A stretch of DNA of 64,000 nucleotides, from positions 23,500,001 to 23,564,000 of the forward strand of contig CM097885.1 of the NCBI GenBank assembly GCA_044892525.1, in the 5' to 3' direction. Position 1 is the first letter of the stretch. Each line of letters begins with the position of its first letter. Below the pieces are notes generated by a model. The model did no database searches. It was not told where the DNA came from and saw only the letters and a program-made list of their open reading frames with translations. Below, piece by piece: positions 6,728-58,376 of the stretch. The translations under genes were made by a program, and so were the position numbers. The DNA is from Schmidtea polychroa (Eukaryota).

Positions 6728-7280
6728 ATGGCTATGATTAATACAGATAATTACTATTATCATAAATGCAACAGGGACGTTCACATATCCCAGGATGGTA
6801 AATGTGTGACGTGCAATGATGGATTTATTGAAAGAATTGAATCTGATAACTCAATGGAAAGTGATGATGAAGCCTCATATTCCTGGTGGAAGTACTACAA
6901 ACGAAACTGATGGTTCCTTTTTTATTACTCCAAGAGATCCTGATAACAGAAATAGTGTTTTTGGCCAACTAATATCAAATTTATTTGCTGGATTGCTACC
7001 TCTAGATTTTAAATCAGATTCGTCAGATTACATATTTTCAGATCAAAGTTTCGACAATTTTGTAACGAGAATTATGAATCAATTTGACCAGGATGGTCCT
7101 CCACCAGCAAACGAGGCAGATATTGAGAAATTACAAGTCAAGAAAATCACCGAAGCTAATGATACAGGTTCCATATGTCTGTCAGATTATGAGGTGGCCG
7201 ATGAAGTGTACGAGTTGCCCTGTCAGCATAGATACCATGTTCAGTGTCTAAAAACGTGGTTAATTCAACATATATATTGA
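6728..7280 (+). pseudogene. Intronless RNF115/RNF126-like RING-H2 E3 ubiquitin ligase copy, frameshifted and 3'-truncated
   Basis: N-terminal Zn ribbon (YYYHKCNRDV..CVTCNDGFIERIE) in one frame. DYIFSDQSFDNFVTRIMNQFDQDGPPPA plus RING-H2 (SICLSDY...LPCQHRYHVQCLKTWL) in another. The final CPxC pair is missing and two Zn-ligand cysteines appear substituted. Confidence 0.8.
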
Positions 7281-7751
7281 CATTGTCTTTTACTAAGCCG
7301 ATTGCAGCAAGACCTTTGAATTACATCACCTTTGACAAAGAAAAGGTGACACTTAAAATTTCACGAAAAAAGCACAAATAAGACACATTTATAAACTGTA
7401 TCCCCTCTTTTTGATACCCCACACTAGATAAGATATTTAACAAAGTAGACAATCAAGCCAATCAAAAATATTTTGTGTCCTTACCGTGATCACTTTAATT
7501 GTGCTTACAAAAATTGTTTAATTGCTGTGTTAGATTATTTAAAAAATTAATAAAGTTTTTGATTAAAAATTATATTATTATTAATTTTGTTATTACTCAT
7601 ATGCATTAAGATTGCAGATTGTTCTCTTAGTTTGCGTGAAATTTTTATTTTGTAATGTGTGTAAGTTTTGCTTCCCAGTGTGTGAAAAGTATTTCACAGT
7701 GCGTGTAAATTATATTTCACAATATGCGTGTACATGTAATACTCTCAATTT

Positions 7752-7819
7752 CTATTGGGCGAATACATATTACGCAATTTACAATATATAAAGCAATGTT
7801 TAAAAATATTTCATCACTT
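7752..7819 (+). promoter_or_regulatory. Putative Pol II core promoter (inverted CCAAT, TATA, Inr) upstream of the pPolB leader exons
   Basis: ATTGG at about 7754, TATATAAAG at 7785-7793, and TCACTT at 7814-7819, about 30 nt downstream of the TATA. GCGTG/GTGTG repeats lie upstream. Confidence 0.45.
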
Positions 7820-7948
7820 TTATTATATACCTAAATTTTTAAACTCAACAAAATACCAAGAAATATTCAAGTAAACCAAAACGGAAACGGTGTCAAGAAT
7901 GGTAAGATTTATTTATTTATTTGTCATTATTATTGATATAATTTACAG

Positions 7949-8208
7949 GACTTAATCGAAATTTCAACAAAAGCTCTAACAATAACATTGGAAACATGAC
8001 AAATGGTATTTCATTATTATTATTAAATTTATATTAATTTATTCTTTTTTAGATTTTATTATAAACAACATGAATGGATGCAGCATAAATGGAAGAAACA
8101 TGAACGAAACAATTACAAATAATAATAATAATGATGGTAACAATTTGATTGGGCACAGTAATGCATATGGAAAAAATGATTGCAAAATATCAAAAAGAAA
8201 AGTTAAAT
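7949..8208 (+). CDS. Putative spliced Asn/Gly-rich leader exons (7949-8005, 8053-8208) of the pPolB gene
   Basis: GT-AG introns 7902-7948 and 8006-8052 (47 nt each) and 8209-8952 are all phase 1. The joined exons stay open (MTNDFIINNMNGCSINGRNMNETIT...KISKRKVK-Y-SGDEVMPL) and run into ORF 8970. Confidence 0.5.
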
Positions 8209-8598
8209 GTAAGATTTTATTTTCATTTAAAATTTTTTAATGATTTTATAAGTTTTTATTAAAGGATTTATTAATGTTTTTATTTTAATATTTAATAATC
8301 AATACTTTAAATAAAATAACTGTGATATATTACTTTGAATAATAATAATAATGAACTATTAATAGGTTTAACTATTATGTAACAGGTTAAATTTATTTTT
8401 ATCAATAATTTATTTTGATTTTGTATTAAGTATGTTTAAACTATTATGTAATAGGTTAAATATATTTACAATCAATTTACCTTTTTGATAAAAATATATT
8501 TATATTGTTATTTATTGAAGTAATAATAATAATAATAATAATATTAATAATATCAAAATTATTGTAATAGTTCTTTACATGATGATTGCGATTTCATA

Positions 8599-8827
8599 AT
8601 GGAAAAATATTACAAGCATAGCCATAATCATACCATCTTTTTTATTTGCCCCGTTTGTATGACCCCCGAAATTGTAACATACATCGAGTTTTATCATCAA
8701 CATAGGGATCATTTAACTCAGTATAATTTAAAGAAAAGAGACCTTATTATTTTATTAAAAAATAATATTCCCAATACCTATAATCCCACTATAAATCATA
8801 ATAATGCTACTACAAGTACTAATAATC

Positions 8828-8866
<39 letters not shown>

Positions 8867-8892
8867 TATCTAATGTAAATAATAAAAGATAA
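8599..8892 (+). CDS. Small ORF with CxxC..H..H (zinc-finger-like) motif and Asn-rich tail, inside the predicted pPolB intron
   Basis: FICPVCMTPEIVTYIEFYHQHRDHL; the 3' half is an AAT repeat. Confidence 0.35.
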
Positions 8893-8952
8893 ATTAATTT
8901 ACCTAATCTAAAACCCTTTAAATTTGTTAAAAAGATCTTATTGTTATTTCAG

Positions 8953-11900
8953 ACTCTGGTGATGAGGTCATGCCTTTGATAGTTTACTCTTATTCACTTT
9001 TTTATAATAATAATAATACTTCTATTACATCAACTTCTACAGAAGTCATTATCAATCAACAAGGTGGTTCACTTGAACCTGAAACCATATTCGATTTAAA
9101 TAAAACACATGCTGAAGTTAAAATGGATGTTTCATCCTTAAATTTAAAAACAGTTTCGATCCCAACTCAGTTAATAAATGAATTAAATAAAGTTTCATCT
9201 GAGATGGGTTCAATAAAAATTCAATTTTGTTTGAAAGTGGAATTTGAAAAAGATGAAGAATTTTAATCATTCGTTATTTCAAATTCTGCTAGACCCATGA
9301 GTGATACCTTCTTAGAAGATGGTATTGATTTATTAAATGAAAAAATAATTAAAGTTAATGAAAAAGGAAGCAACTGGGTTATACATAAAATTGAATATAT
9401 TAGTTTTATAATAACAAAATATTCGCAAATACCCAGATTAACTGGCTGTGGATATATTGCTATACCAGAAACATTATTAAATAAAACATGTACTGTTAAT
9501 GTTAAAAATACAAATGATGAATGCTTCCTATATAGTATTTTATCTATTTTGAAATATAATAGTATTAGTACCAATAGATCTAAGCCATATAATTATAATA
9601 CTTCGAAATTAAAATTCGATCCTGCAGATCTCCCTATGCACCTTTGTAATATATCTAAATTTGAATCCCAGAACCCCGGTTTATCGATAAAGGTTTTAAC
9701 TTATAACGAAAATATATTAAATGATGTTAAGAATACTGAAGAAGTTATGAAACATCCTTATGTTGACATAATTTATCGATCTAAAGTTATTAGAGGATAT
9801 CAATTAACTTAATTTTGTTAGAAGATTCTGACACATATCATTACATAGGTGTTACTAATCTTGATAGACTTTTGAATTTTAAAAATTCTAGTGTAACTGC
9901 TGTTACGATTTGTAGTAAATGGTGTCCCAGATGCTTAAATGGTTTTCGAAATCCTAATTCTTTCATGAGACACAAGGGTTTGTGTGATAAAAATCAGTTA
10001 GGGACTACTCTCTTTACATTACCTGAAGATAAATATCTTAGTTTTACAAATTGGTCAAAGATTGTCACTCCTCCATTTGTTATTTATGCCAACTTTGAGG
10101 CAATTTTACCTAAAGATAATAAATACAATCAAAAACATTTACCAATCTCAGCAGGTTTTGTTTTTATAAATAATTTTACAGAGGATAAATTTTATAAAAG
10201 TTTTATAGGATTGGATTGTGTTGAACAGTTTCTTCATGAACTTGAAGAAATTGGGAAGCAAATAGTGGCTCCATATTTTGAAACACGATATAAGAAAATG
10301 ATGTTTTTAATAGTATTGACAAAATAAACTTTTCTTCGGCTGTAAATTGTCATTTGTGTAAGAAAACTTTAGTAAATCCAGTAAGAGATCATGGCCATTT
10401 TTCGGGTAAATATTTAGGTGCAGCATGCTTAACTTGTAATGTTTCTCGAAGAATTAGACCGGTTTTACCATTTATTTTTCATAATTTGAGAGGATATGAT
10501 CTCCATCATATTCTCAAATTTGGCTTAGGTAAATATAAATCATGGAATATTAATTGTATTCCTATAACTAGTGAAAAGTTTTTAAGTTTATATGCAAGAA
10601 TTGACGGATTAACTATAAAATTTATCGATTCTTGTCAATTTATTAACAATTCTTTAAAAAATGCTGTAAAAACATTAACTACATTTCCATTGACTAATTC
10701 TGAATTTAACGGAGTAATTATTAATAGTAAAGGCATATTCCCATATGATTTTGCAACTAGTTTAGAAGTGTTTCAGGCAGCTCCCCAATTACCACTAATT
10801 TGGGATGGTGTTACTGAAGTAGAATATGATATGGTTCAGCGCATTTGGGATGAACATAATTGTAATTCACTTTTGGATTACATGATGATATATTTAAAAT
10901 TAGATGTCTTTTTACTTGCGGATTATTTCCAGCAGTTTAGAGCAAAATCAATAGCTCATAACAGATTGGAACCCTTAAACCTTTTAGGTATTCCCGGTAT
11001 GTCATGGAACTCTGCGCTCATGACTTTAGATCATCCAATTGAGTTGATCCAAGACATGGAGATTTATAATTTCTCTGAGGATGGGATTCGAGGGAAACTA
11101 ACTTTTGTTAATAAACATTACGTAAAATCAGATGAAAACACAGAGTTGCTCTATATAGATATTAACAACCTATATGGTTGGGCACTTAGCCAGAAACTAC
11201 CAGATGGTAACTTTAAGTGGATTAACGATGAAATAAAATTAAATAAAATTTTGGAAGATTGTATGAATTTTGACTTGTAATTACTCACATTCGGTTATAC
11301 TGTTGAAGTGGATTTGGAAATTCCAGAATCAATTCATGATAAGCTTGACGATTTCCCTGTTGCAGCTGAAAAGAGGCGTGCACCAGGATCCAAAGTGGAG
11401 AAGTTGATGCTTACGCACTATCCCAAAAAGAATTATGTAGTTCATTGGAGACTTCTCCAGCTTTATCTAAATATTGGGGTAAAAGTCACTAGGATTCATC
11501 ACGCTGTACAATTTGAACAATCATCAATATTTAAAAACTATATAGATACTGACACACAACTTAAGGCATCATCAACAAAGACACTAGATGAAATTTATTT
11601 TAAACTATTAAACAACAGTCTATACGGTAAGACTGTCGGAAACCTAAAAAAATGAATTAATTTTAGACTTTGCAATTCAGCCCAAAGGATTTTAACATAT
11701 TGTTCTAAACCTAATTTCAAAACAACTACTAAAATCGATGACGACTTAATATCTGTTCTATTAATGAAAGATTTAATATGTTTAAATAGACCAAGTTATA
11801 TTGGTCAATCAGTTTTGGATTTATCAAAACTTCGTATGTACCAACTTCAGTACATTGATTTAAAAAAATATCGCATAGAATAGTTTATGGGGACACAGAT

Positions 11901-12446
11901 TCCTTCTTCTTGGAAATTAAAAATTGCAAATTAAATTCTCTTTTACCAGCAATGAAAAAGGATAATTTATTAGATACCTCTAATTATGAGCCAACACATT
12001 CATTATATTCAAAAAGCAAGAGTCTTGGATATGACGAATTGATATTTTTAAGACCAAAATGTTATAGCATGAAGGGTAGTAAGGGATGTATGAAAGCGAA
12101 GGGGGTCACAATGAAAGATAATGGACTAACTCATCAGTCGTATCTGAATTGTTATAATAATAATGAGATTTATACGGCACCCCAATTTAGGATAACGAGT
12201 AAAAATCATCAACTTTTCAGTATTAAAAATAATAAGAGGGCTTTAACTAATGCTGACGATAAGCGCAATTGGGTACTTAAAAATAAAAGTTATGCGTATG
12301 GTGATTATAGAAGGGGTGGTATGGTTATGGCTGATGATTCTGATGAAAAAATGTTGCTGCCCATAGTTGATCCAGATGAAGATTTGTTATATCATCCTCA
12401 TTTTCAGAATGATGATGGTTGTCAATTAATAAATTTTATGATATAA
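8953..12446 (+). pseudogene. Protein-primed family B DNA polymerase (Polinton/Maverick or adintovirus type), disrupted
   Basis: Motifs in order: YIAIPETL..VNVKNTNDECFLYS; CPRCLNGF..HKGLC Zn finger; PFVIYANFE (Exo I); endonuclease VII-like CHLC..VRDHGHFSGKYLGAACLTCN; FHNLRGYD (Exo II); KGIFPYD; YLKLDV; YIDINNLYG (Pol A); KLLNNSLYGKT (Pol B); YGDTDS at 11886-11903 (Pol C); LRPKCY; KAKGV. In-frame stops at about 9264, 11278 and 11653; frameshifts near 9810, 10330 and 11880. Confidence 0.92.
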
Positions 12447-12597
12447 AAAATTTGTTTTTACTCTATTTTTAAGCGTTACCAAATATTTATTTTGTTAGTG
12501 TTACTTGTGATAGTACACTATTTTTATGTTGTTATAGTATTTTTATTTTACTTGTTATATTCAATCAGTTTTTGGTGAGAAAACTTTTTGTAATTTA

Positions 12598-12963
12598 TTG
12601 AAAGAAACAAGCCCAATTAAGAAAATAACTGAGACGAAGCATATCAAAAATGATGTGAAACCAGTACAAATGTATCATAACCATAAGATATATTTCTTGG
12701 TAGACGAAATTCCATATAAATTCTCAAATGCAGTCAAATTGATCAAGTCACAATATTCAAGTTTCATTGCTCATATAACAAAAGAATATGTTGTTGCAGT
12801 AAATAAAGTGTTGGGGAAAATCAATAAGAGTCTAAGTTGCAATGGAAATATAATCAACAATCGATATTCCCGTTATCATGATGCCTTTGAAGAAATTGAA
12901 TATAAAGATGTCATATCACCCATTTGGAGATTAGATAGTGCTCGAATTTCTCTGCGATTTTAA
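12598..12963 (+). CDS. Hypothetical protein downstream of pPolB, possible accessory gene of the same element
   Basis: 121-aa ORF on the same strand. The stop overlaps AATAAA. No family recognised. Confidence 0.35.
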   Translation: MKETSPIKKITETKHIKNDVKPVQMYHNHKIYFLVDEIPYKFSNAVKLIKSQYSSFIAHITKEYVVAVNKVLGKINKSLSCNGNIINNRYSRYHDAFEEIEYKDVISPIWRLDSARISLRF

Positions 12964-13373
12964 TAAATGTTTAGTTTTTAATCTCTTAATATAATTTTTT
13001 ACTATCAGAATGAGTTTTCTTAAGTATAGATGAATTTGTATTTTTGTATGGCTTTTCATTTCCTAGAATTCGGTCGATTTTTAAAAAATTAAATCATAAC
13101 TTCTCATTCACGCTTTTACAACTAGATAAATATTGATTTTTCACGCAATTATTCAATAATAGAAAATTTATTAGCACTATCATGATACAATATTTTAAGA
13201 CGTTCAATTTACAAATCTAAATAAATACGATCATCAATTCATAAATATATCCTAATAATTTTTCATAATTAGTTTCTTGTTACATTACAATTAAAACGAA
13301 TCCATTATGTACAAAGGCCGTAAGAAGTTTAATTCGATATTTCAAGCAAACAATTGAAACAACAAACCAATGC

Positions 13374-13982: not shown

Positions 13983-15953
13983 TCAATTGGATGAAATATT
14001 TTCGATGCTCGAGAAATCATTGGCTGCTGCTGTTACGTGACGAGTTTCGGTAACGCTTGCTGTCGATATAGGCGGGTTTGTGAACAGCAACAATGATGAA
14101 GATGAGGCTGAGGCTGAGGCTGATGGTAATGAGGTATCTTGACAGCAAGTCCCGATTGGTTCTGATTTCTTCGGATTTGGAATGGTAACTGAATTAGCAG
14201 CAGCATTAGGAAGGATGACAGAAGGATCAGGAGTATCAAGCTTTTGAGTATTGAATGCAGATGTGGCAGTTTGGTCGATGATTATTGGCTGTTGCTGTTG
14301 CTGCTGCTGCAGTTGCTGTTGTTGATCAGATGATGTTCGACAGGAGCTCAAATCGACAACTTCATTCTCGAATCCCGGATTACCAGTGGCTGGAGTTGAA
14401 ACGATTTCCAGAGGTTTTAAAGCGTTGATTTGAGGATATGAAAAATCGAAAGGAATTCTTTTTGGAACGCCTTTTTTCCGTTTGCTTCGATTGACAGAGG
14501 ACAATGAGAAATTGCCAGCAGTTTTCAAATCGCACTTTTCCTGATCGTTATCATTGTCGGAACCGTTTTTATTTAAATGCAAAAGATTCGGTGTAAGCTG
14601 TTGGGGTTGAGAATAATCATTTTTCGACAAATCAGATTGCATAGATGACGAACCGGATGATGAGATCGGTTGCTGGAAGGATTTCGAGATTTTACAGTGA
14701 GTTTTCGACGGTTTAGAGTCTTCGATTAATCCCGTAGAAAGCGAAGAATGAACAAGCTTTTCATCGGGAAAAGAATCAAGAGATGGAACATCAATCGACA
14801 AAAATTCTTCTTTGGAAGTGGAAATATCAGTAATTTTGCTGGTTTCGATGGATTTTTTATTACTACAATGTTGATCTTTATTTTGCTTCATTTTCATTCT
14901 TTCAAGTTTAACGAAACAGTGCTTGGTGTTGTCTTCATCTTCCTCGTCAATCTTGCTGGAATCCGTTGTCAGATGTGTGGACAATACAATCGGATTCGTT
15001 GAGGATTCATTTATGGGATTTTCACTGCTTGTAAATATCCCTTTGATATTTAATCCAGTCAAAATCAATTCCACTTCGGTATTGTTATTGTTAGACGATC
15101 CGGATTCTGTGCATTTATCGATATCTTCTGGAGGTGGTCGTTCGACAATAATTTTGCGACTTCTAGTTCTTGGCCTGGAACTAGAAGCTTCAACAGCACC
15201 GATGTTACTGTTATTTCCCGGTATCCATTCATCTTCTGCCGGACTGATTTCACTAACGGGTTTCAATTCACCCTTTTTCGATGCTACTTTTTTCTTTGTT
15301 TTTCTCGACATTTTTTTATTGGATTTCGTTTTCGATTTTGAGATTTTTTGTTTGGATTTCAATGTTTTTTCTTTAACTGGTTCGATGATTGGTTCGGCAT
15401 TTTTTAGGAGATTTACGAAATCACCGAAATTGATTTCGCTTCCAAGATTCGATTGATCATCGACTGTTTCTTTTACAGAGCTAACAGTTTTTTCTTCAAT
15501 ATCTTTCTCATCTGTCGATGAGGATTTTTCGGTGATTTTCTGTGGATCTTCAATGGGGGTTGGGTCATTTTTGGGGGTTTGCTGAAATTCGTCAACTACA
15601 ATCATCAATTGTGGGGAATTGTCGGATGCCTCTGATGGTAAAGTTGTATTTTCTTTGATCAATTCCACAGATTTAACAATTGGACATTCAGAAGATTCAG
15701 TCAATACGTTTTGTTTTATTATTTTTTTCGGCTGAACAGATTTACGAGGACCGTGCGTTATGGGTTCAGTTAAGTTACGTAATGGTGATTTTGAACCTGA
15801 ATTTTCACAAAGAGGACTTGCACCCCTGCTCGATGGAGAAGATCCTGATACACTTGAGGGCGTAGAACTAAGAGGAAGGTTTTGACTTCTTTCAAATGCA
15901 AATTCAACAAGCTTGTCTATTATTTTTGTTAGTGATTTCATTTTCATGGATAT
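13983..15953 (-). CDS. ASH1L: ASH1/ASH1L, terminal exon (long low-complexity C-terminal tail)
   Basis: Acceptor TTTTTAG|ATA at 15953 is in phase 0 with the donor at 17478 and is open to TGA at 13983. The three exons total 6282 nt (2093 aa). Confidence 0.8.
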   Translation of the reverse strand: MSMKMKSLTKIIDKLVEFAFERSQNLPLSSTPSSVSGSSPSSRGASPLCENSGSKSPLRNLTEPITHGPRKSVQPKKIIKQNVLTESSECPIVKSVELIKENTTLPSEASDNSPQLMIVVDEFQQTPKNDPTPIEDPQKITEKSSSTDEKDIEEKTVSSVKETVDDQSNLGSEINFGDFVNLLKNAEPIIEPVKEKTLKSKQKISKSKTKSNKKMSRKTKKKVASKKGELKPVSEISPAEDEWIPGNNSNIGAVEASSSRPRTRSRKIIVERPPPEDIDKCTESGSSNNNNTEVELILTGLNIKGIFTSSENPINESSTNPIVLSTHLTTDSSKIDEEDEDNTKHCFVKLERMKMKQNKDQHCSNKKSIETSKITDISTSKEEFLSIDVPSLDSFPDEKLVHSSLSTGLIEDSKPSKTHCKISKSFQQPISSSGSSSMQSDLSKNDYSQPQQLTPNLLHLNKNGSDNDNDQEKCDLKTAGNFSLSSVNRSKRKKGVPKRIPFDFSYPQINALKPLEIVSTPATGNPGFENEVVDLSSCRTSSDQQQQLQQQQQQQPIIIDQTATSAFNTQKLDTPDPSVILPNAAANSVTIPNPKKSEPIGTCCQDTSLPSASASASSSSLLLFTNPPISTASVTETRHVTAAANDFSSIENISSN

Positions 15954-16870
15954 CTAAAAATGCGACTCAGAATTGACAAAGTTCAAAGAATATTTAAGAA
16001 AATTATTGTTATAATCAATAATTGACCGTAAAGGTTTCTCAACAAAAAAAACATTATGTCGGGAGCTCGAGTGGAAATGAATCGTAAAGTAATTTTCTAG
16101 ATATATATGAATCTAAAATTAGATGCTACTGAAATTTAGGTAACTTAGGAAGATCCAAGGAGACAGAACTTATGTGATAAAGTTGTCAGTATGAAAAGCT
16201 GATGATAAATATAAAAATATTTTATTAGCACTCATTATAGATCATCTTTATGAGAAAAATATATATTTTCAATTTCGATATTAAATAATCAATATTTATT
16301 AATAATTGATAGTTAAATCATTGTAAGAATATTAGCTTGTTGTTTAAATAGTTGAGATTTTTAGGCGGGTATTTTAAAACAATTTCAAATTTCATTATTT
16401 CTTAATAAATTTTTGGAAATAATATTCCTAAAAAATTGTCGGCTTGTTATTGATTTCCTCAATTTCGGGATACTTCTTATAATTGTTACTCGATCTAAGT
16501 ATTTCTTCTAATATTTACATTTTTCTATTTTCATTAACTTATTCCTCATTTGAATAAAATAGTATTTTTATTATTATTATTGAAATAACGATCTGTTAAA
16601 TCAATTTATTATATCAATATCGAATTAATTTTTTATATATTTATGGAATTATAGTTTTGTCATAATTTAAGTAATGAATTTTAATTTTTGACAATATTTT
16701 GACTGTGTCGAGTCCTCAAGATTAAGAAACACTAGGAAACAGAAATATGACTGACACTAATAACGATTATCATCTATAGCAGTGTTTCTCAACAATTTTT
16801 TGTTTATGACATTCACTATTTTATCAACACTAGATGTTATTCCATCACACTAGAGTCTAATTAATGAATT

Positions 16871-17093
16871 AATAAATTAATGAAAATACTATACATCTGA
16901 ATTCAGTCACATTTTCCCAGGTATATATTAGAAATATTTATATCAATGTAACGCACAGTCCTTTCTATTTAATCGTCTAGTGACTAGACGATTAAATAGA
17001 AAGGACTGTGCGTTACATTGATATAAATATTTCTAATATATACCTGGGAAAATGCGACTGAATTCAGATGTATAGTATTTTCATTAATTTATT
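16871..17093. repeat. Near-perfect 223-bp palindrome (111-bp arms, 1-nt loop) in ASH1L intron
   Basis: Centre ...AATCGTCTAGT G ACTAGACGATT... at 16982. One mismatch seen (GTCAC versus GCGAC). Confidence 0.95.
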
Positions 17094-17478
17094 TCTCATT
17101 TGAATAAAATAGTATTTTTTAATAATATTCAAATATCAATTTATTATATCAATATCAAATTAATTTTTCATATATTTATATTCTGAACAATTATAGATTT
17201 ATGAAATTATAATTTTGTCATTATTTAAGTATAGAATTTTAATTTTGGACTGTCATAGATGAAATTTTGAACAAATTAGTTGAGATATTGACGATCTAAT
17301 CAAAAATTTAGTTATATATTAAAAACAAAATATTAAGTAAAATGAGTTCAAAACAATGGATAATAAATCCTAGGCACGCCCGTTTCGTAGCGATTGAGGT
17401 TAATTTAATACAATTTCTTTACATAATATATAAAAATTAAATTCTGTTAATATTCTAAAAAAACAAATATTTTATTAC

Positions 17479-20400
17479 CTTTTCCTCATTGGATAGTTTC
17501 TGAACACCGTTGTTAGTGATGTTTAGATTATTATTTGCCTCAATAAACGGCAATGATCCTTCATCAATGTTTACAAGATCCTCTGCCAAATATTGCCTGG
17601 TAAATCGTTCACTATTTCCCAATTCGTTGTTGTCATGGAATTTCTCAAAACAATACTGCTTCGTGTTGATTTTCAAATAACCCGGATCTAATTCACTCCA
17701 TTCTCCATTTTGATTGACCATCCAATCACAGACAAATACATCGAGATTGGTATTTTGTGCATTGTTTTGCAACAGAGGCCGTCCTTGTCGAAACGTATAG
17801 CTGTTGAGAACAAAACAGCGCCCCAGGCAAGCATCGAGTGGTAATATTTTCGTGAAATCTGTATAGACGACTTCAAATTGATGCCATTTGTGAACAGTCA
17901 AATCAACAGCAGACAACGAAGATTTCCGTTTATTTGTTCCAGTGAGTTTTGTTGAATCGATATTGGTTAGTAATTTTAATTTGTTATCATATGGCCTCAA
18001 AAACAAGCCTCCTTCCATCCATCTTTGACCATTGGAGTCTTTCCATAAACTGTAGATTCTCATAATCGTTCGACTGGCCAAATCGGTTGGTACCATTATC
18101 GAGGAAGACAAAGGAGAATTTTTCGATGATTTCGGTTTGATATGTGTCGGTTTTGAGTCGGGACTACTGGAAATATACACAAAATCATCGATTTTGAAGA
18201 GATGATCAGATTTTAAAAGTGTCCAAAACAGAGTGTTATCTGAGCCAATCGTTTCGTCGGAAATTACAAAATGGCGAGGAATTTCTCTGATGAGGTTTTC
18301 TGTGGGAATATTAAGACAAATATGACAATAATACGGTTCCATGCGAGTTACGTCGGCTAATTCCGAAGATCTTGCAACGTTCATACAGTAGGCATGTTGC
18401 CACACGAAACAGCGATCACATTGAACCATTACATGACCAGCTTCGATTAAAAATCCACAAATGCATTTAATGACTTCAGCACCTCTTTCTAAACGACCTC
18501 GGGCACCAGTTATAGCACTGATTGCAGTTTGCTTCCGTTTTTTATTTTTATGACTTCCTGCAACATTCGACACGCTAGATTCCAATGTATCGATTTCCGA
18601 TGCCGGCTGATTGTGGGACTTTATTGCAGCCAATGCACTCGTTATCTGCTGTAGGTTATTGGAAATTAATTTCTGTTTATCCTTTTCTTCAAATACTTCA
18701 TCTGTCAGAGCTTCATAGAGAGCGATTGAATTCATTTTCAGTTCTCGATAAATTGGTTTTATTCGTTCAGCACATTGGCCGATATTACTCTGTTTTCCGG
18801 CGTATGATTCGACATTCTGGAGCATTTGTAAGATGTCCTGATCAAATGCCATCATAGTCATATATCCGCCATCCAACAGGCGAGAATACACCTGATTGAG
18901 ACTCGCTACACTGTCACTGCCAATCATTCGATAGAATTCCGGATATTTTTTACGATTCAAGCAATTGATAAATGGAGCGACTAATTGCTGATTCGGATGT
19001 AAAGGATCTTTCTGTTCCAATAGAGTATTGTAAAGATCCTTTAAAACTTGTCCTAATTGGGCAATTCGAGTCAAATTTTCATTGTCTTGTGCATTTTGCA
19101 GTTGTCTTGTTTTAATCGATCTAATAGAATTCAAAGCGGACATTTGAGTAAGGAACTGATTTTTTTTCGCTTTACGACGTTTGATTTCACTTATCGACGA
19201 CGGTAAACGGTTTCCATGGGAAATTTGAGGTTTACGAATTCCCAATCGTTGACATCGTCCCAATTCTCGATTACGAAGAAGAAATACCGAATTTCTAAGG
19301 ATGAATAACTTTTCTCTACCCGACAATAATCTTCCGAAAATATAGAGTAATTTCTTTCGGTCTTTTTGACTTTCTGTTTGTTCTGCTCTCGGTTTACTTC
19401 CGATAAATCCCCGACAACATGCCGATCCACAGAGACAGATCTGTGTGTTTTTCGTATTGAATGAGCAGAAATTGTAATCGTAATACAATTCTGCATCGGC
19501 TGGAATATCTTCAATTGCAAATAGGCACATTCGATATGCACCATTGACCATCCATTTTTGCATTTCACAATTCGGTTGACAACTGTGGTTAACAAATCGA
19601 GCTAGTGAACCACTCCGATAGGCATCGATCAACATTTCTCCGTCGAGATGCAAACAATAGTGATGAGAATCATCCCGATATAGATTCATCATCCGATCTT
19701 GGAATGTGTGTTCATTAATCACTTCACCGACATACTCAACGATAAACGTTCCTTCTCTTATCGATTTAGTAGTTATAACACCTTTACCTTTTCCAGAGAA
19801 ATCTTTCACCTTTAAACCGGGTGCCCATTCACTTTTTCGGATTTTTTGATTGGCACACAACTCCCCACATTGGCAATTTTTTGCCTGGCATTCGGTATAT
19901 GTCAATCGATTCAGACAATTATCCCCACAGTCCCATACAGTTCCCAGTCGTTTTTTTGCCGTTTTGCATTTAATGTTTGGTTTAACATCTTCAACTTTGT
20001 CTAGGACATTTCGTAATTTGCTGGATTTACAACCGCATTTTTCAATTTCTTCGTACCAATGAAGCGGTTTAGAATCGATATATGTGTTTGTGCGTATTTT
20101 TCTATATTTTATATTTTCCTGGTTCCCACTGTCATTTGATATAATCGTTTCGTTGGGAGATGACGGATTTTCTTCCTGGCTTACTTTCTCTTTAGATTTC
20201 TTGAGTTTTGGTTTCTCCAGCTCATCACTCGTCTCCAATTCTTTCAATTTTTTGGTGATTTTTAAATTGTCTACTGGAACATTTTCAATTTCTTTAGATT
20301 TTCTTGAAACTGTTGATTTTTCGATTTTATTTGTTTCGGTTTCTCTTGATTTTCTACCAAGTTTTGGTTTGTCTAATTCTATTGGTTCAATTTGTTTGGG

Positions 20401-20966
20401 TTTAGTTTCAACCGAATCTGTGCTATCTAAGCTGTTATCTGGGGATTTAGCGCGTTTCATTTTACTTTTTGGTCCTGCTGTCTCAACAGTTTTCGATTTT
20501 CTTGGTCGTTTAAATATTTTCCCTAGTGAAGTTTCTGATGATGTATCGTTAGAGTCGGGTCTACTAGAACTGGATTTTTTCAATGATGTATTTTGTTTGG
20601 ATTCAATTGAATTGTCTTGAGACTGTGAACTACTACTGTTATTTAAAGACATTGCCACCATATTAGCAAATCCTCTGGCTGCTGCTTCTCGTTTAGATCT
20701 CTTAAGAGACTCTAGCTTCGTGGGAAATTCAATTTTACTCCTGTCACATATTTTTGCTACATGTTCTTCTACTTGTGGTTTCGGTAATTCTTCACATTCC
20801 ATCGGCTCAAAAGAAGCCGGTGCCATTTCATCTACAATAGGCACAATTGGTTTCTTATCTACTGGTAATTTTATCGATGATATGGTTTTCTTTTTACGTT
20901 TAGATCGTGATCGAGAAATAGGTGCCTTTGCAAGTGCTTTTTCGTCCATTTTCAATTCAATCTCAT
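17479..20966 (-). CDS. ASH1L: ASH1/ASH1L, main exon: AWS-SET-postSET, bromodomain, PHD, BAH
   Basis: AWS CGDNCLNR..C..C.CGELCANQ; SET GKGKGV..EYVGEV..ARFVNHSCQPNC..ELYYDY; post-SET CLCGSACCRG; bromo-like PFINCLNRKKYPEFY; PHD CICG..MVQCDRCFVWQHAYC..YYCHIC; BAH DDFVY..IMRIYSLWKD..WMEGGLFLRP. Acceptor TTCAG|AT, donor AAG|GTAATA. Confidence 0.95.
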
Positions 20967-21988
20967 CTGAATTTTAAGCATTTAAGTGAGAAAGATATAA
21001 TTGCAATCGATCAAAACTTAAATAGCACGCAATTAACTTAAAGCAATGATAATATAATTTTTCGAGAATTCAATGAAGATCAATAAAGAATTGGACATGA
21101 AACAACAAAATGTTGAAGCCGAAATTGTTTTATTATTTTACAATAACATTTAATTTTAATCGACAGCATAATATTTTTATTTCAATATTATTAAAAAATC
21201 AATTCTATCGATAAAATAATACAATTAATTCAATTTTAGAAATATGAATAATTTAGAATAACTTTTAATTTTAATCGACAGCATGACATTTTTATTTCGA
21301 TGTTATAAGAAAATCGGCTTTCTCTATTGCGTGATGCGTAATCAATTTAATCAAGTATTTCTCTTTAAAATCATAAGCTATGTTAAATATTAAACTTATT
21401 TTAAATAACCTTAAATCAGTGATTTGAACCGTTTCACAATAGTCACTGTAAGAGTGTATATCAGCAGAATTTTATCCCAATTTTAGTCACAAAAAAATCT
21501 CAATTTGATAAAAATTTCAGGAGTAATTGACCTTTTAAAGATTATTCAATTATTTTCAATTAGTTTTCGGTTAGGGATCAATGTCTTATATTTAGCACAA
21601 ATTTCCGGTAACTTTTACAGGAAAGAGTGTCGAATAATATTAATATAAACCTTGACCTATAATATCAAACTAAATCGAAACGTAAATGAAAACAGATGAA
21701 AGATGAAGATAAAAGAAATAAATTTATTGATAGTCAAATTTTACAATATATATATATAAATATATATTGTTTGCTAATTGACATTTTATATCATCCGTTA
21801 AGTTTGAATTTGTTAATATTTATTAGAAAATTATTAGCTTCACTATCGGTTGTGTAGCATCAATAATCAGTGTACTTGATTAAATCAATGTATAATGACT
21901 TACAATCAAACAATAATTTAAAATAATAGGTTTTCATTTTTGAAAGATCAATGCATTTACCGATGTTTGAAAAGTTGATGATATATGA

Positions 21989-22699
21989 CAAGGGTGGGCA
22001 CGCATGGGTTCAATAAGAGCCATTTTCCGAAAATTTATTTTTTACAGAGCCACCATAGTAAAGTACATATTTTTTTTTATTTCATTAATTTGATTAAAGA
22101 GACTTAAACGCTATTAAAAAAAACAAAATAATTATTTCAAACATTAAGTAACAAACATAAAAATCCATTAATAAAAAGTAATAAAATTTCTTGAATTAAC
22201 GAAGACTTTTGGTCAAATCTTTGAAATTTGGTGTATACTTTGTTAAAGCTGTTCGCAGCAATTCTGTAAGATGCTGATTGGTCAACTGTGAACGATATTT
22301 CGACTTTACGAACTTCATTGTGGAGTACAAAGATTCACAACAATATGTTGTACCAAAAATTGAAATTAGACGGAAAGCAGCTTGTTTTAAGTGTGGATAT
22401 TTTGCCTCTGGTACGAGTTTCCAAAATTCAACTATAGAAGTATATTTATGGTGCATTTGCAAAGCCTGGTCCTCTTTCATATCTAATAACTCCAATTCCT
22501 CAACCGCTTTTTTAACAAGTATTACTTCAGAAATTGGAAATCCATCTTCAATAATATCACAAATAAATGGGTTCACAAAAAATGCAAATGTAGATTTATA
22601 AAATCGAATTCGATTATCAAGAATTCAATTATCAATGAGCCGCAGTTTACTCAACGAAGAGCCGCATGCGGCTCTAAGAGCCGTATTTGCCCACCGTTG
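21989..22699 (-). mobile_element. Internally deleted hAT element (GTF2IRD2/Buster-like transposase C-terminus) in ASH1L intron
   Basis: TIRs CAAGGGTGGGCA / TGCCCACCGTTG and a perfect 8-bp TSD ATATATGA (21981-21988, 22700-22707). ORF 22196..22576 has EFWKLVPEAKYPHL..SIFGTTYCCESLYSTMKFVKSKYRSQLT (hATC domain). Confidence 0.93.
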
Positions 22700-56739: not shown

Positions 56740-58376
56740 CCGTATATTTCGGCGTATAAGGCGACCGTCAGATAAGACGAGGTACAAAATTAGAGCAAAT
56801 TTTTATGATTTATCATATATCGGTTGTATAAGACGACTGCTAAATAACGAAGAGATTGCAACACCCGGTATCTTATGAAATATTGGTTATGTAAAGATGA
56901 TTTATTAGTATAGATTCAGTATCGATTGGTATAGATTGTGGTCATTTTATTATTAAACCCATATCAGGAATGGAACCGCCAACAAAAAGAAGAAAATATG
57001 AGGCAAGTTTCAAGTTGAAAGTCGTAGACGTAGCCAAGGTTTCGAAGAACTGCGCTGCTGCAAGACAATTTGATGTTACTGAAAAGATGGTACGAGAATG
57101 GAGAAAGAAGGAGGATGATATAAGACAAATGCCCAAAAACAAATGTGCAATGCGGCGAGGAATCACATGTTGGTCAAAATTGGAAGACAACGTTGCAGAA
57201 TGGGTACTCCAGCAGAGACAAGATGGCTACATTGTGACCAGAAATAAAATAAGATCTTATGCTTTGAAATGGGCCAAGGCAAACAAAGAAGAAAGTAAAG
57301 ACTTCAAAGCTACAGTGGGATGGTGCAGTAGGTTTATGAACAGAAGAAATTTAGTAATAAGAGAAAAAACAAAAATCGCTGAGAAACTACCAAAAGATCT
57401 CGAGCACAAAATAACAAACTTCCACCATTTCATAATTCAGCTAAGGAAAAGGCATAAATTTCCATTATCCCATATCGGAAATATGGATGAAACTCCAATG
57501 AATTTTGACATGCTTGGTAATAAAACAGTGAAAAGTACAGGACACGAGAAGACAAGATTTACAGTGGTATTAGGGTGCATGGCAGATGGTACTAAATTGA
57601 AACCAATGGTTATCTTTAAACGTAAAACAAAACCTAAAATAACTTTTCCTCCTGGTGTTTTGGTTCACTTCCACGAGAAAGGGTGGATGGACGAGAATGG
57701 TGTAAAGTTATGGATTGAAAATATTTGGAACAGACGGCCAGGTGGTATGCGAAAGGAACGCAGTTTGTTGGTCTGGGATATGTTTCGGAGCCATATAACG
57801 GCTAATTCTAAAACTCGTTTAGCGCGGTTATCCCAGGTGGTTTAACTTCTGTACTTTAGCCGCTTGACGTAAGCTTAAATTAGCCATTCAAGGATAATGC
57901 TAGAGCACAATGGAATGAGTGGATGATGAATGGTGAAAAGTCATTTACAAAAAACGGAGCTATGCGTGATGCCTCACTTGATGTTCTTTGCGAGTTTGTT
58001 ATAAAAGCATGGGATAATGTTAAGGTAGAAAGTGTCATAAAATCCTTTAAAAAATGTGGAATATCTAATGCCATGGATGGTAGTGAGGATGATTTATTGT
58101 ATGAAGATGAAGCCCAAGTCGACTTGCCAGAACCAGAATGGAATCCCTACAATGATGACATCTGTGATGAATCTCGTGATGTATTCGAAAAAATTTTCGA
58201 AACAGACGGTGATGATGGTGATGAATTTGATGGGTTTTAGATATGCATAAAAGTAGTATAAATACAACTTACCTGTACTTTAATACTTTCTTTTATATTG
58301 GTTGTATAAGACGACCCACAATTTTCAAGGGTGATTTTTTGACTTTAAGGGTCGTCTTATACGCCGAAATATACGG
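56740..58376 (+). mobile_element. pogo-family (Tc1/mariner superfamily) DNA transposon, near full length
   Basis: TA TSD and TIR CCGTATATTTCGGCGTATAAG(G/A)CGACC at both ends. Internal TATAAGACGAC subterminal repeats. Confidence 0.96.
56970..58240 (+). pseudogene. pogo transposase (Brinker-type HTH, CENP-B HTH, DDE_1), disrupted near the catalytic region
   Basis: YEASFKLKVV..AARQF..VREWRK; FKATVGWCSRFMNR; NMDETP; LVWDMFRSH; a frameshift at IPGGLTSVL*PLDV; KAWD..KSFKKCGI; acidic tail. Confidence 0.93.

Follow-up and report, generated by a model that had tools for sequence, protein, structure and literature searches.

Polintons, also called Mavericks, range in size from 15 to 25 kb, and human adenoviruses, with which they are compared below, have the start codon of their polymerase in a tiny exon. 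The core genes of vertebrate Mavericks are described as intronless (PMC8097293), and a nematode Maverick has introns only in its cargo genes, its core genes being intronless (10.1101/2022.07.12.499685). The messenger RNAs (mRNAs) of the adenovirus polymerase and of pTP are spliced (PMC11304566, PMC7851563), and introners, which derive from transposons and were mostly gained after integration, occur in dinoflagellate maverick-polinton-like elements (PMC11957031). The stretch of DNA analysed here, which we call the window, comprises 64,000 nucleotides (nt) of Schmidtea polychroa (contig CM097885.1, positions 23,500,001 to 23,564,000) and includes a decayed Polinton/Maverick element with a protein-primed family B DNA polymerase (pPolB). 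By comparing this copy, a member of what we call family A, with its sisters, with two more families (B and C) and with metagenomic relatives, we arrived with good confidence at the view that pPolB is driven by its own promoter and spliced by the host, such that short Asn-rich leader exons are joined to one long last exon, and that an intron was gained within a Cys codon. As a phenomenon, an intron-bearing pPolB in these Polintons has a high probability of being real.

The elements are similar to the Polintons/Mavericks of animals (adintoviruses, with an Alpha-type PolB and with OTU and PF03175; PMC8502044) in their length of about 15 kb, their terminal inverted repeats and their 6-bp target duplications, and also in possessing an rve integrase, an A32-type ATPase, an adenain-like protease, a double jelly-roll-like capsid candidate and a PF03175 polymerase. 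Unlike Polintons with intronless core genes, they appear to carry spliceosomal-type introns in pPolB, and probably in the protease gene. They share a weak Y-family-like match of the terminal protein (TP) fold and an invariant Cys/His pair with the polyprotein (TP-vOTU-EXO-PALM) described by Krupovic et al. (10.1101/2024.03.18.585575), but have in addition an N-terminal Cys/His motif and a spliced low-complexity leader before the TP-like region; the terms 'splic', 'intron' and 'zinc' do not occur in the accessible text of that paper. The adenovirus E2B unit likewise produces a protein-primed polymerase from a spliced mRNA with upstream exons, and adenovirus pTP is coded by two exons (PMC11304566). 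However, adenoviruses share distant leader exons between two genes across kilobases, whereas here a dedicated, adjacent promoter would serve one polyprotein with introns of 45-54 nt, a low-complexity leader of 55-127 residues and a last intron that cuts a conserved Cys codon. In contrast to the dinoflagellate introners (PMC11957031), the introns are inherited by all copies of recently spreading families and are dissimilar to one another within a family, although no introner search was made in the S. polychroa genome (G000). A term search of the accessible text of PMC10748475, PMC12220804, PMC8502044 and 10.64898/2026.10.13.758929, supplements excluded, returned no spliceosomal intron in a Polinton polymerase. 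Our literature search, whose scope left out most subscription papers, Repbase records and supplements, found no description of inherited spliceosomal introns in this gene.

An initial annotation of the window had proposed a promoter with CCAAT, TATA and initiator-like motifs, and the comparison bore this out. A reverse CCAAT box-like motif, ATTGG (7754..7758, on the + strand like all window features below unless stated otherwise), precedes a TATA box-like motif, TATATAA (7785..7791), and an initiator-like motif, TCACTTT (7814..7820), follows 29 nt after the TATA. The first motif lies 31-42 nt before the TATA in families A, B and C, the TATA is kept in 36 of 37 family-A copies, and the spacing between TATA and initiator is 29, 28 and 29 nt in the three families, respectively. 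Transcription is likely to start at the initiator-like motif. The family-A counts here and below refer to 37 distinct copies including that in the window; L018-L030 duplicate 13 of the loci L031-L050 and were counted once, and L058, which is without the leader, was left out.

Behind the promoter lie the coding part of leader exon 1 (7853..7901, 49 nt, delimited by comparison with the sisters), leader exon 2 (7949..8005, 57 nt) and leader exon 3 (8053..8208, 156 nt against 153 nt in most sisters), the latter two read from the frame of the window and from the sister copies. They are parted by two phase-1 introns of 47 nt each, at 7902..7948 and 8006..8052. The donors of introns 1, 2 and 3 are GT in 35, 37 and 36 of the 37 copies and the acceptors of both short introns are AG in every copy; these splice sites are conserved among the sisters. 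All 20 young family-A copies have stop-free leader exons of 49, 57 and 153 nt, and behind the last acceptor 17 of them are open for at least 1321 codons. Between the window copy and a young copy the exons differ by an indel of 3 nt and the short introns by indels of 4 and 1 nt. The introns resemble U2-type spliceosomal introns in their GT-AG ends, their frame-keeping phase and their host-like size, for which the reference is the one host intron checked, a 49-nt myosin intron at 2766-2718 that the annotation had already cited. The start codon of exon 1 is present in 34 of 36 sister copies and absent from the window copy, in which no start codon opens the three-exon frame: an ATG at 7796 is closed by a stop ahead of the Asn-rich part of exon 1, and another at 7899 is out of phase. 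The leader had been called Asn/Gly-rich; this is true of Asn (30% in one young copy), whereas Gly reaches just 8%. Its Asn content varies with the family, from 30% in A to 17% in B and 47% in C.

The third intron required correction. It had been drawn from 8209 to 8952 (744 nt), in phase 1 like the other two, and those sites do exist in the window; the resulting chain meets the pPolB frame at 8953, although pPolB itself is interrupted by stops and gaps. The two short introns and the last donor are conserved, whereas the third intron was made too long. By 381 nt upstream of the position matching 8952, the pPolB frame of the young sisters is already open, behind an acceptor that is conserved in 31 of the 37 family-A copies; four copies could not be mapped and two have lost it, one of them being the window copy. 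We therefore place intron 3 at 8209..8549, with its donor intact and its conserved acceptor lost near 8549, about 400 nt before the acceptor first proposed. An exact motif search of the genome found 53 last donors and 44 conserved last acceptors. The stretch that the earlier model treated as intron, 8553..8952, is the start of the last exon; it encodes a predicted zinc-binding Cys/His motif and a linker, broken in this copy, and is conserved as protein across the three families. The acceptor at 8952 (8948..8952) is thus probably wrong. It is in frame, no other in-frame acceptor was identified in the window copy, and it is present in 33 of the 37 family-A copies, the other four not being mappable; hence one may ask whether some transcripts join the leader straight to the TP-region and skip the Cys/His motif. 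But its counterpart in the young copies lies 381 nt inside an open and conserved coding stretch, and at the matching position families B and C have no AG in that phase. We consider this way of splicing very improbable, and at most an alternative site giving a minor isoform in family A.

Families B and C, whose polymerases are about 69% and 73% identical to that of family A at the DNA level, provided a further comparison, and blastn found no alignment of their leaders with that of family A. Family B has four phase-1 introns of 45, 45, 52-54 and 826-888 nt in 10 of 11 retrieved copies. In family C the coding region has a single intron, of about 1090 nt, and the last acceptor is present in all three copies; a short upstream segment in this family may be an intron of the 5' untranslated region (UTR). 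All introns in the coding regions of the three families are in phase 1. In each family the codon cut by the last intron is divided behind its first base and reads as Cys only once the intron is removed. This Cys opens a motif of the form C-x5/6-C...H...C / CPxC...H...H, which is conserved as protein in A, B and C. The leader frame runs without a stop into the phase-1 donor in all three families, and in A and C the unspliced frame has a stop directly upstream. A and B resemble each other in the 5' part of the last intron (0 of 300 shuffles). In the protease gene, a GT-AG segment of 47, 47 and 51 nt occurs at the same place in A, B and C (L032:1090-1136, L051:2260-2306 and L057:2821-2871), and a clear start codon was not seen in the short upstream protease exon of B and C.

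The region in question has a GC content of 19%, and the window copy alone offers no ATG that opens a chain of short introns (4 of 500 shuffles equalled it). The GT-AG chain might therefore be a chance reading of AT-rich non-coding DNA. When the families were tested, a chain from an ATG to the last donor with as many short introns appeared in 0 of 500 dinucleotide shuffles in each of A, B and C, the rules for such a chain having been set after the sites had been seen. The three families also share the identical junction that splits the Cys, and the relatives have a matching Cys. A chance origin of the chain is in our opinion hardly credible.

The closest database proteins to pPolB are metagenomic and 50-60% identical. 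No homologue at E <= 0.001 was returned for residues 1-330 of the long frame, and a small profile of the Cys/His motif found the motif among the relatives that had been retrieved with the polymerase core; no relatives were found in viral_contigs. The motif was matched at 6 of 80 metagenomic loci, and all six have a TATA, a short UTR, an ATG and then the Cys 1-6 residues on, with no intron. Three further proteins likewise start with an ATG 1-6 residues before the motif Cys, giving nine relatives of this kind, of which the DNA was seen for six. We built a tree of 62 sequences (54 of 120 relative proteins, four metagenomic loci and four sequences from the S. polychroa genome, nearly all unnamed), with two named insect proteins as the outgroup. 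Families A, B and C form one clade in it (support 1.0), nested among the metagenomic relatives. Because the three families nest among intron-free relatives, the parsimonious reading is that an intron was gained inside the Cys codon in or before their common ancestor and that family-specific gains followed. Two more distant pPolB pieces were noticed beside copies of these elements: L066:600-3003 (- strand), immediately beyond the left end of a family-A copy, and L069:76-2685 (+ strand), near the left end of a family-B copy, which groups with the intron-free relatives in the tree.

Sequencing runs were also compared with the sister copies. None of the runs that share the young-copy stretch is on record as RNA; five with at least half of its words are of unknown kind or guessed to be RNA. 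In run X1, which is only guessed to be RNA, one contig of depth 9.3 on a sister copy lacks intron 2, joined precisely at the intron ends, with one base differing. A motif search of the genome returned no copy without intron 2 and no match for the variant base that X1 has before donor 2. We take this skip as a weak hint of splicing, not as proof. Runs X6 and X7 gave just two and five short pieces on a sister copy. These results cover 15 of 43 and 12 of 15 junction rows; further junctions, or a DNA control for the intron-2 skip, may be among the others.

Several observations weigh against the splicing and the intron gain proposed here. Intron 1 is retained in the same X1 contig, whose upstream end lies about 250 nt before the TATA box, and its marker bases match none of the 37 family-A copies. 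Other contigs of X1 retain the protease segment and extend into intron 3. The skipping contig's haplotype, outside the 37 copies, makes a DNA deletion in another individual possible. Splicing of pPolB is inferred here from DNA. Since the young copies are 98-99.9% alike, their agreement counts as little more than one observation. Between the window copy and a young copy, the leader exons differ at 25 of 259 positions and the short introns at 4 of 93; because the exons diverge more than the introns, the leader residues appear to be unconstrained. In family B, acceptor 3 is AAG in four of ten copies and acceptor 2 is GAG in one of ten, and in two copies a leader exon contains a stop. No pair of short leader introns within a family was more similar than shuffled sequences, which offers no explanation of why all are in phase 1 and lends no support to growth of the leader by duplicated exon-intron units. 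As for the direction of change, the six intron-free loci derive from two metagenome sets, the five nearest relatives (P0001, P0003, P0015, P0019 and P0021) are called from an inner Met that lies behind the split Cys codon, and with intervening node supports of 0.88-1.0 the direction rests on parsimony.

That inner Met, conserved in all three families and situated behind the first half of the motif, might itself act as a start. In family B, an upstream in-frame ATG near the end of the long intron is present in the unspliced frame of 10 of 10 copies. The polymerase could then be translated from an unspliced message, and the upstream exons would be a separate small gene or an untranslated leader, as the mostly unspliced X1 contigs and the lack of conservation of the leader residues would allow. 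However, protein-level conservation extends to the half of the motif upstream of the inner Met, and the intron-free relatives translate this half from an ATG close by. The unspliced frame of families A and C offers no start, and in all three families the leader frame reaches the phase-1 donor without a stop. An unspliced message is accordingly judged improbable, though less so than the skipping of the motif or a chance chain.

Under the spliced model that we prefer, host RNA polymerase II would start about 29 nt after the TATA, the host spliceosome would remove the phase-1 introns, and translation from exon 1 would produce in order the leader, the Cys/His motif, the TP-like region, a vOTU-like protease and the polymerase. 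The founding intron would have been gained inside the first Cys codon of the motif, in the ancestor that A, B and C share or before it; splicing would from then on have been needed for a complete predicted metal-binding motif, and the last splice is probably obligatory for it. Short phase-1 introns and low-complexity leader sequence may later have been added in each family separately, with selection keeping the start codon, the frame and the splice sites, and not the amino acids of the leader. The leader probably forms a disordered, near-neutral extension of the polyprotein at its TP end. A structural model of the pre-catalytic region (pLDDT, the predicted local distance difference test score, 87) has an adintovirus protein as its best match (E 2.4e-18), further fold matches among bidnavirus-like and plant-virus replicase entries, and a weak match to Y-family polymerases in PDB (E about 0.006); no direct OTU match was found in PDB at E <= 0.001. 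Across 32 of 32 sequences, this region keeps one invariant Cys and one invariant His. The predicted fold fits the TP-vOTU layout of 10.1101/2024.03.18.585575, and on the hypothesis set out in that paper the leader would stay with the cleaved terminal protein.

The proposal in the initial annotation that the element expressed its replicase through host-style splicing, with a low-complexity N-terminal extension, was thus supported in its outline by the sister copies, the two further families and the intron-free relatives, whereas its last acceptor did not stand and the start codon is missing from the window copy. Whether the introns are of use to the elements is a different matter. The transcript might benefit from resembling a host gene, by escaping from the silencing of intronless DNA or by better export, or splicing of the last intron might gate the output of polymerase. 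Several short introns of near-host size are of separate origin in the three families, one is also present in the protease gene, and in human cells HUSH is reported to silence intronless mobile elements (PMC8770142). On the other hand, elements related to these persist with no such introns, and in the young copies the integrase, the ATPase and the putative capsid are each read as a single open frame. We regard such a benefit as doubtful. It is likewise a tentative suggestion, and rather an unlikely one, that an actively spreading Polinton lineage made its replicase dependent on the spliceosome through an intron gained in a metal-ligand codon and keeps gaining short host-style introns in core genes as camouflage against silencing or as a replication switch.

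The assignment of the polymerase to the Polinton/adintovirus type is backed by PF03175 matches, by the sister copies and by the relatives. PF03175 matched the core of a young copy (E 3.8e-30) and two fragments of the window pPolB (E 2.5e-16 and 3.9e-8), and it was not returned when three full-length pPolB frames were searched against Pfam. Judging from sequence, family A is a young, multi-copy Polinton/Maverick family. An initial scan of the genome gave 14221 pPolB candidates, of which 104 were scored; among these were 63 matches at 97-100% identity and 41 at 80%, and 14 of the latter were retrieved. At least 40 genomic matches were counted for the leader region, with 40 of 88 candidates scored. 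Twenty sister loci are long, 98-99.9% alike. Inverted termini and 6-bp target duplications were found in four of four family-A sisters examined, and the end coordinates give an element of about 15.0 kb in three of them and about 11 kb in the fourth. A family-A sister encodes an integrase (rve E 1.3e-10, with a Chromo domain), which is absent from the truncated window copy and for which rve stays under the curated cut-off in a family-B copy; Pox_A32, the packaging ATPase (E 3.5e-6), and Peptidase_C5, the adenain-like protease (E 1.4e-4), were also matched in family-A sisters. The candidate capsid frame had no match in Pfam. In a feature search, a family-B frame scored 0.97 against double jelly-roll capsid clusters in which PF21738 occurs in 65% and 15% of members, with a recognition value under the threshold.

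A few other features of these elements were noted. Families A and B encode a TBP-like protein of about 155 amino acids (L066:5243-5710 and L069:6369-6830, both on the - strand; PF00352 E 2e-15 and 6e-15) that matched 35 TBP sequences in PDB, and PMC8502044 has a gene labelled TBP in a figure legend. Head-to-head inverted pairs of the polymerase end make up at least eight family-A loci, for example C2:78456520-78464301, C1:236290001-236297782, C4:28872320-28883957 and C3:16616648-16627539. Two inverted-pair loci have the same gap of 626 nt between their last acceptors, with no last donor matched, and appear to fold back inside intron 3, without the leader. An unnamed gene of about 158 codons lies within both long terminal inverted repeats of family A (L066:3946-4419, - strand; window 12568-12963). 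In family B the pPolB linker contains a tandem repeat with an 11-residue, Cys-containing unit (L051:4700-4950), and frame lengths vary between copies. The long pPolB intron of family C contains antisense open stretches of 41-93 codons (L057:3929-4460, - strand), apparently parted by a short GT-AG segment and with no Pfam match; by eye this frame was likened to the terminal-repeat gene, which tblastn did not confirm.

The window copy is the decayed right-hand fragment of a family-A element (7467..13045, 5.6 kb), and its similarity to all 20 long sister loci spans exactly these ends, beyond which the sisters extend on both sides; the left two thirds and both termini of the element are missing. 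It begins with the 3' end of a small gene upstream of pPolB (7467..7550, recognised by comparison with the sisters). A Pfam search of this piece gave no match; we take the gene to be PW-like. The rest of pPolB (8953..12446, with TP-like, vOTU-like, exonuclease and palm regions) is 96% identical to a young copy over the aligned columns. In this copy the pPolB gene is interrupted by stops at 8890, 9264, 11278 and 11653 and by gaps that break the frame near 8932, 9791, 10303 and 11879. It is a dead fragment, unable to make the polymerase itself. Downstream, the remnant at 12568..12963 belongs to the small unnamed gene inside both terminal repeats of the young copies. The fragment sits between a RING-finger pseudogene-like stretch and a host gene with SET, bromo, PHD and BAH domains. 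The former (6810-7280) is an open frame without apparent introns that ends before the last ligands, and is possibly a processed pseudogene. The latter (13983-20973, - strand), which has an AWS domain too and lies about 1 kb past the element, is presumably ASH1-like. Farther off in the window are a fragment of a hAT dimerisation domain (22196-22624, - strand) and a Tc5/pogo-type DDE transposase with a break (56901-58240). Look-alike stretches were not found in the other genomes compared.

Polinton core genes are annotated as single open reading frames (ORFs), and for this lineage the polymerase N-terminus obtained in this manner, and the status of copies called intact by ORF scans, would be wrong. 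If the replicase depends on splicing, its transcription would be nuclear and would use host machinery, a point of relevance to whether the elements replicate autonomously, as adenoviruses do. Gain of an intron at a known codon, intron-free relatives and later family-specific gains would together make a compact case of intron gain, an event that is rarely caught. Should the introns prove to act as camouflage or as a switch, the dozens of near-identical copies and the intron-free sister lineages would offer a tractable system for intron gain and its selective value.

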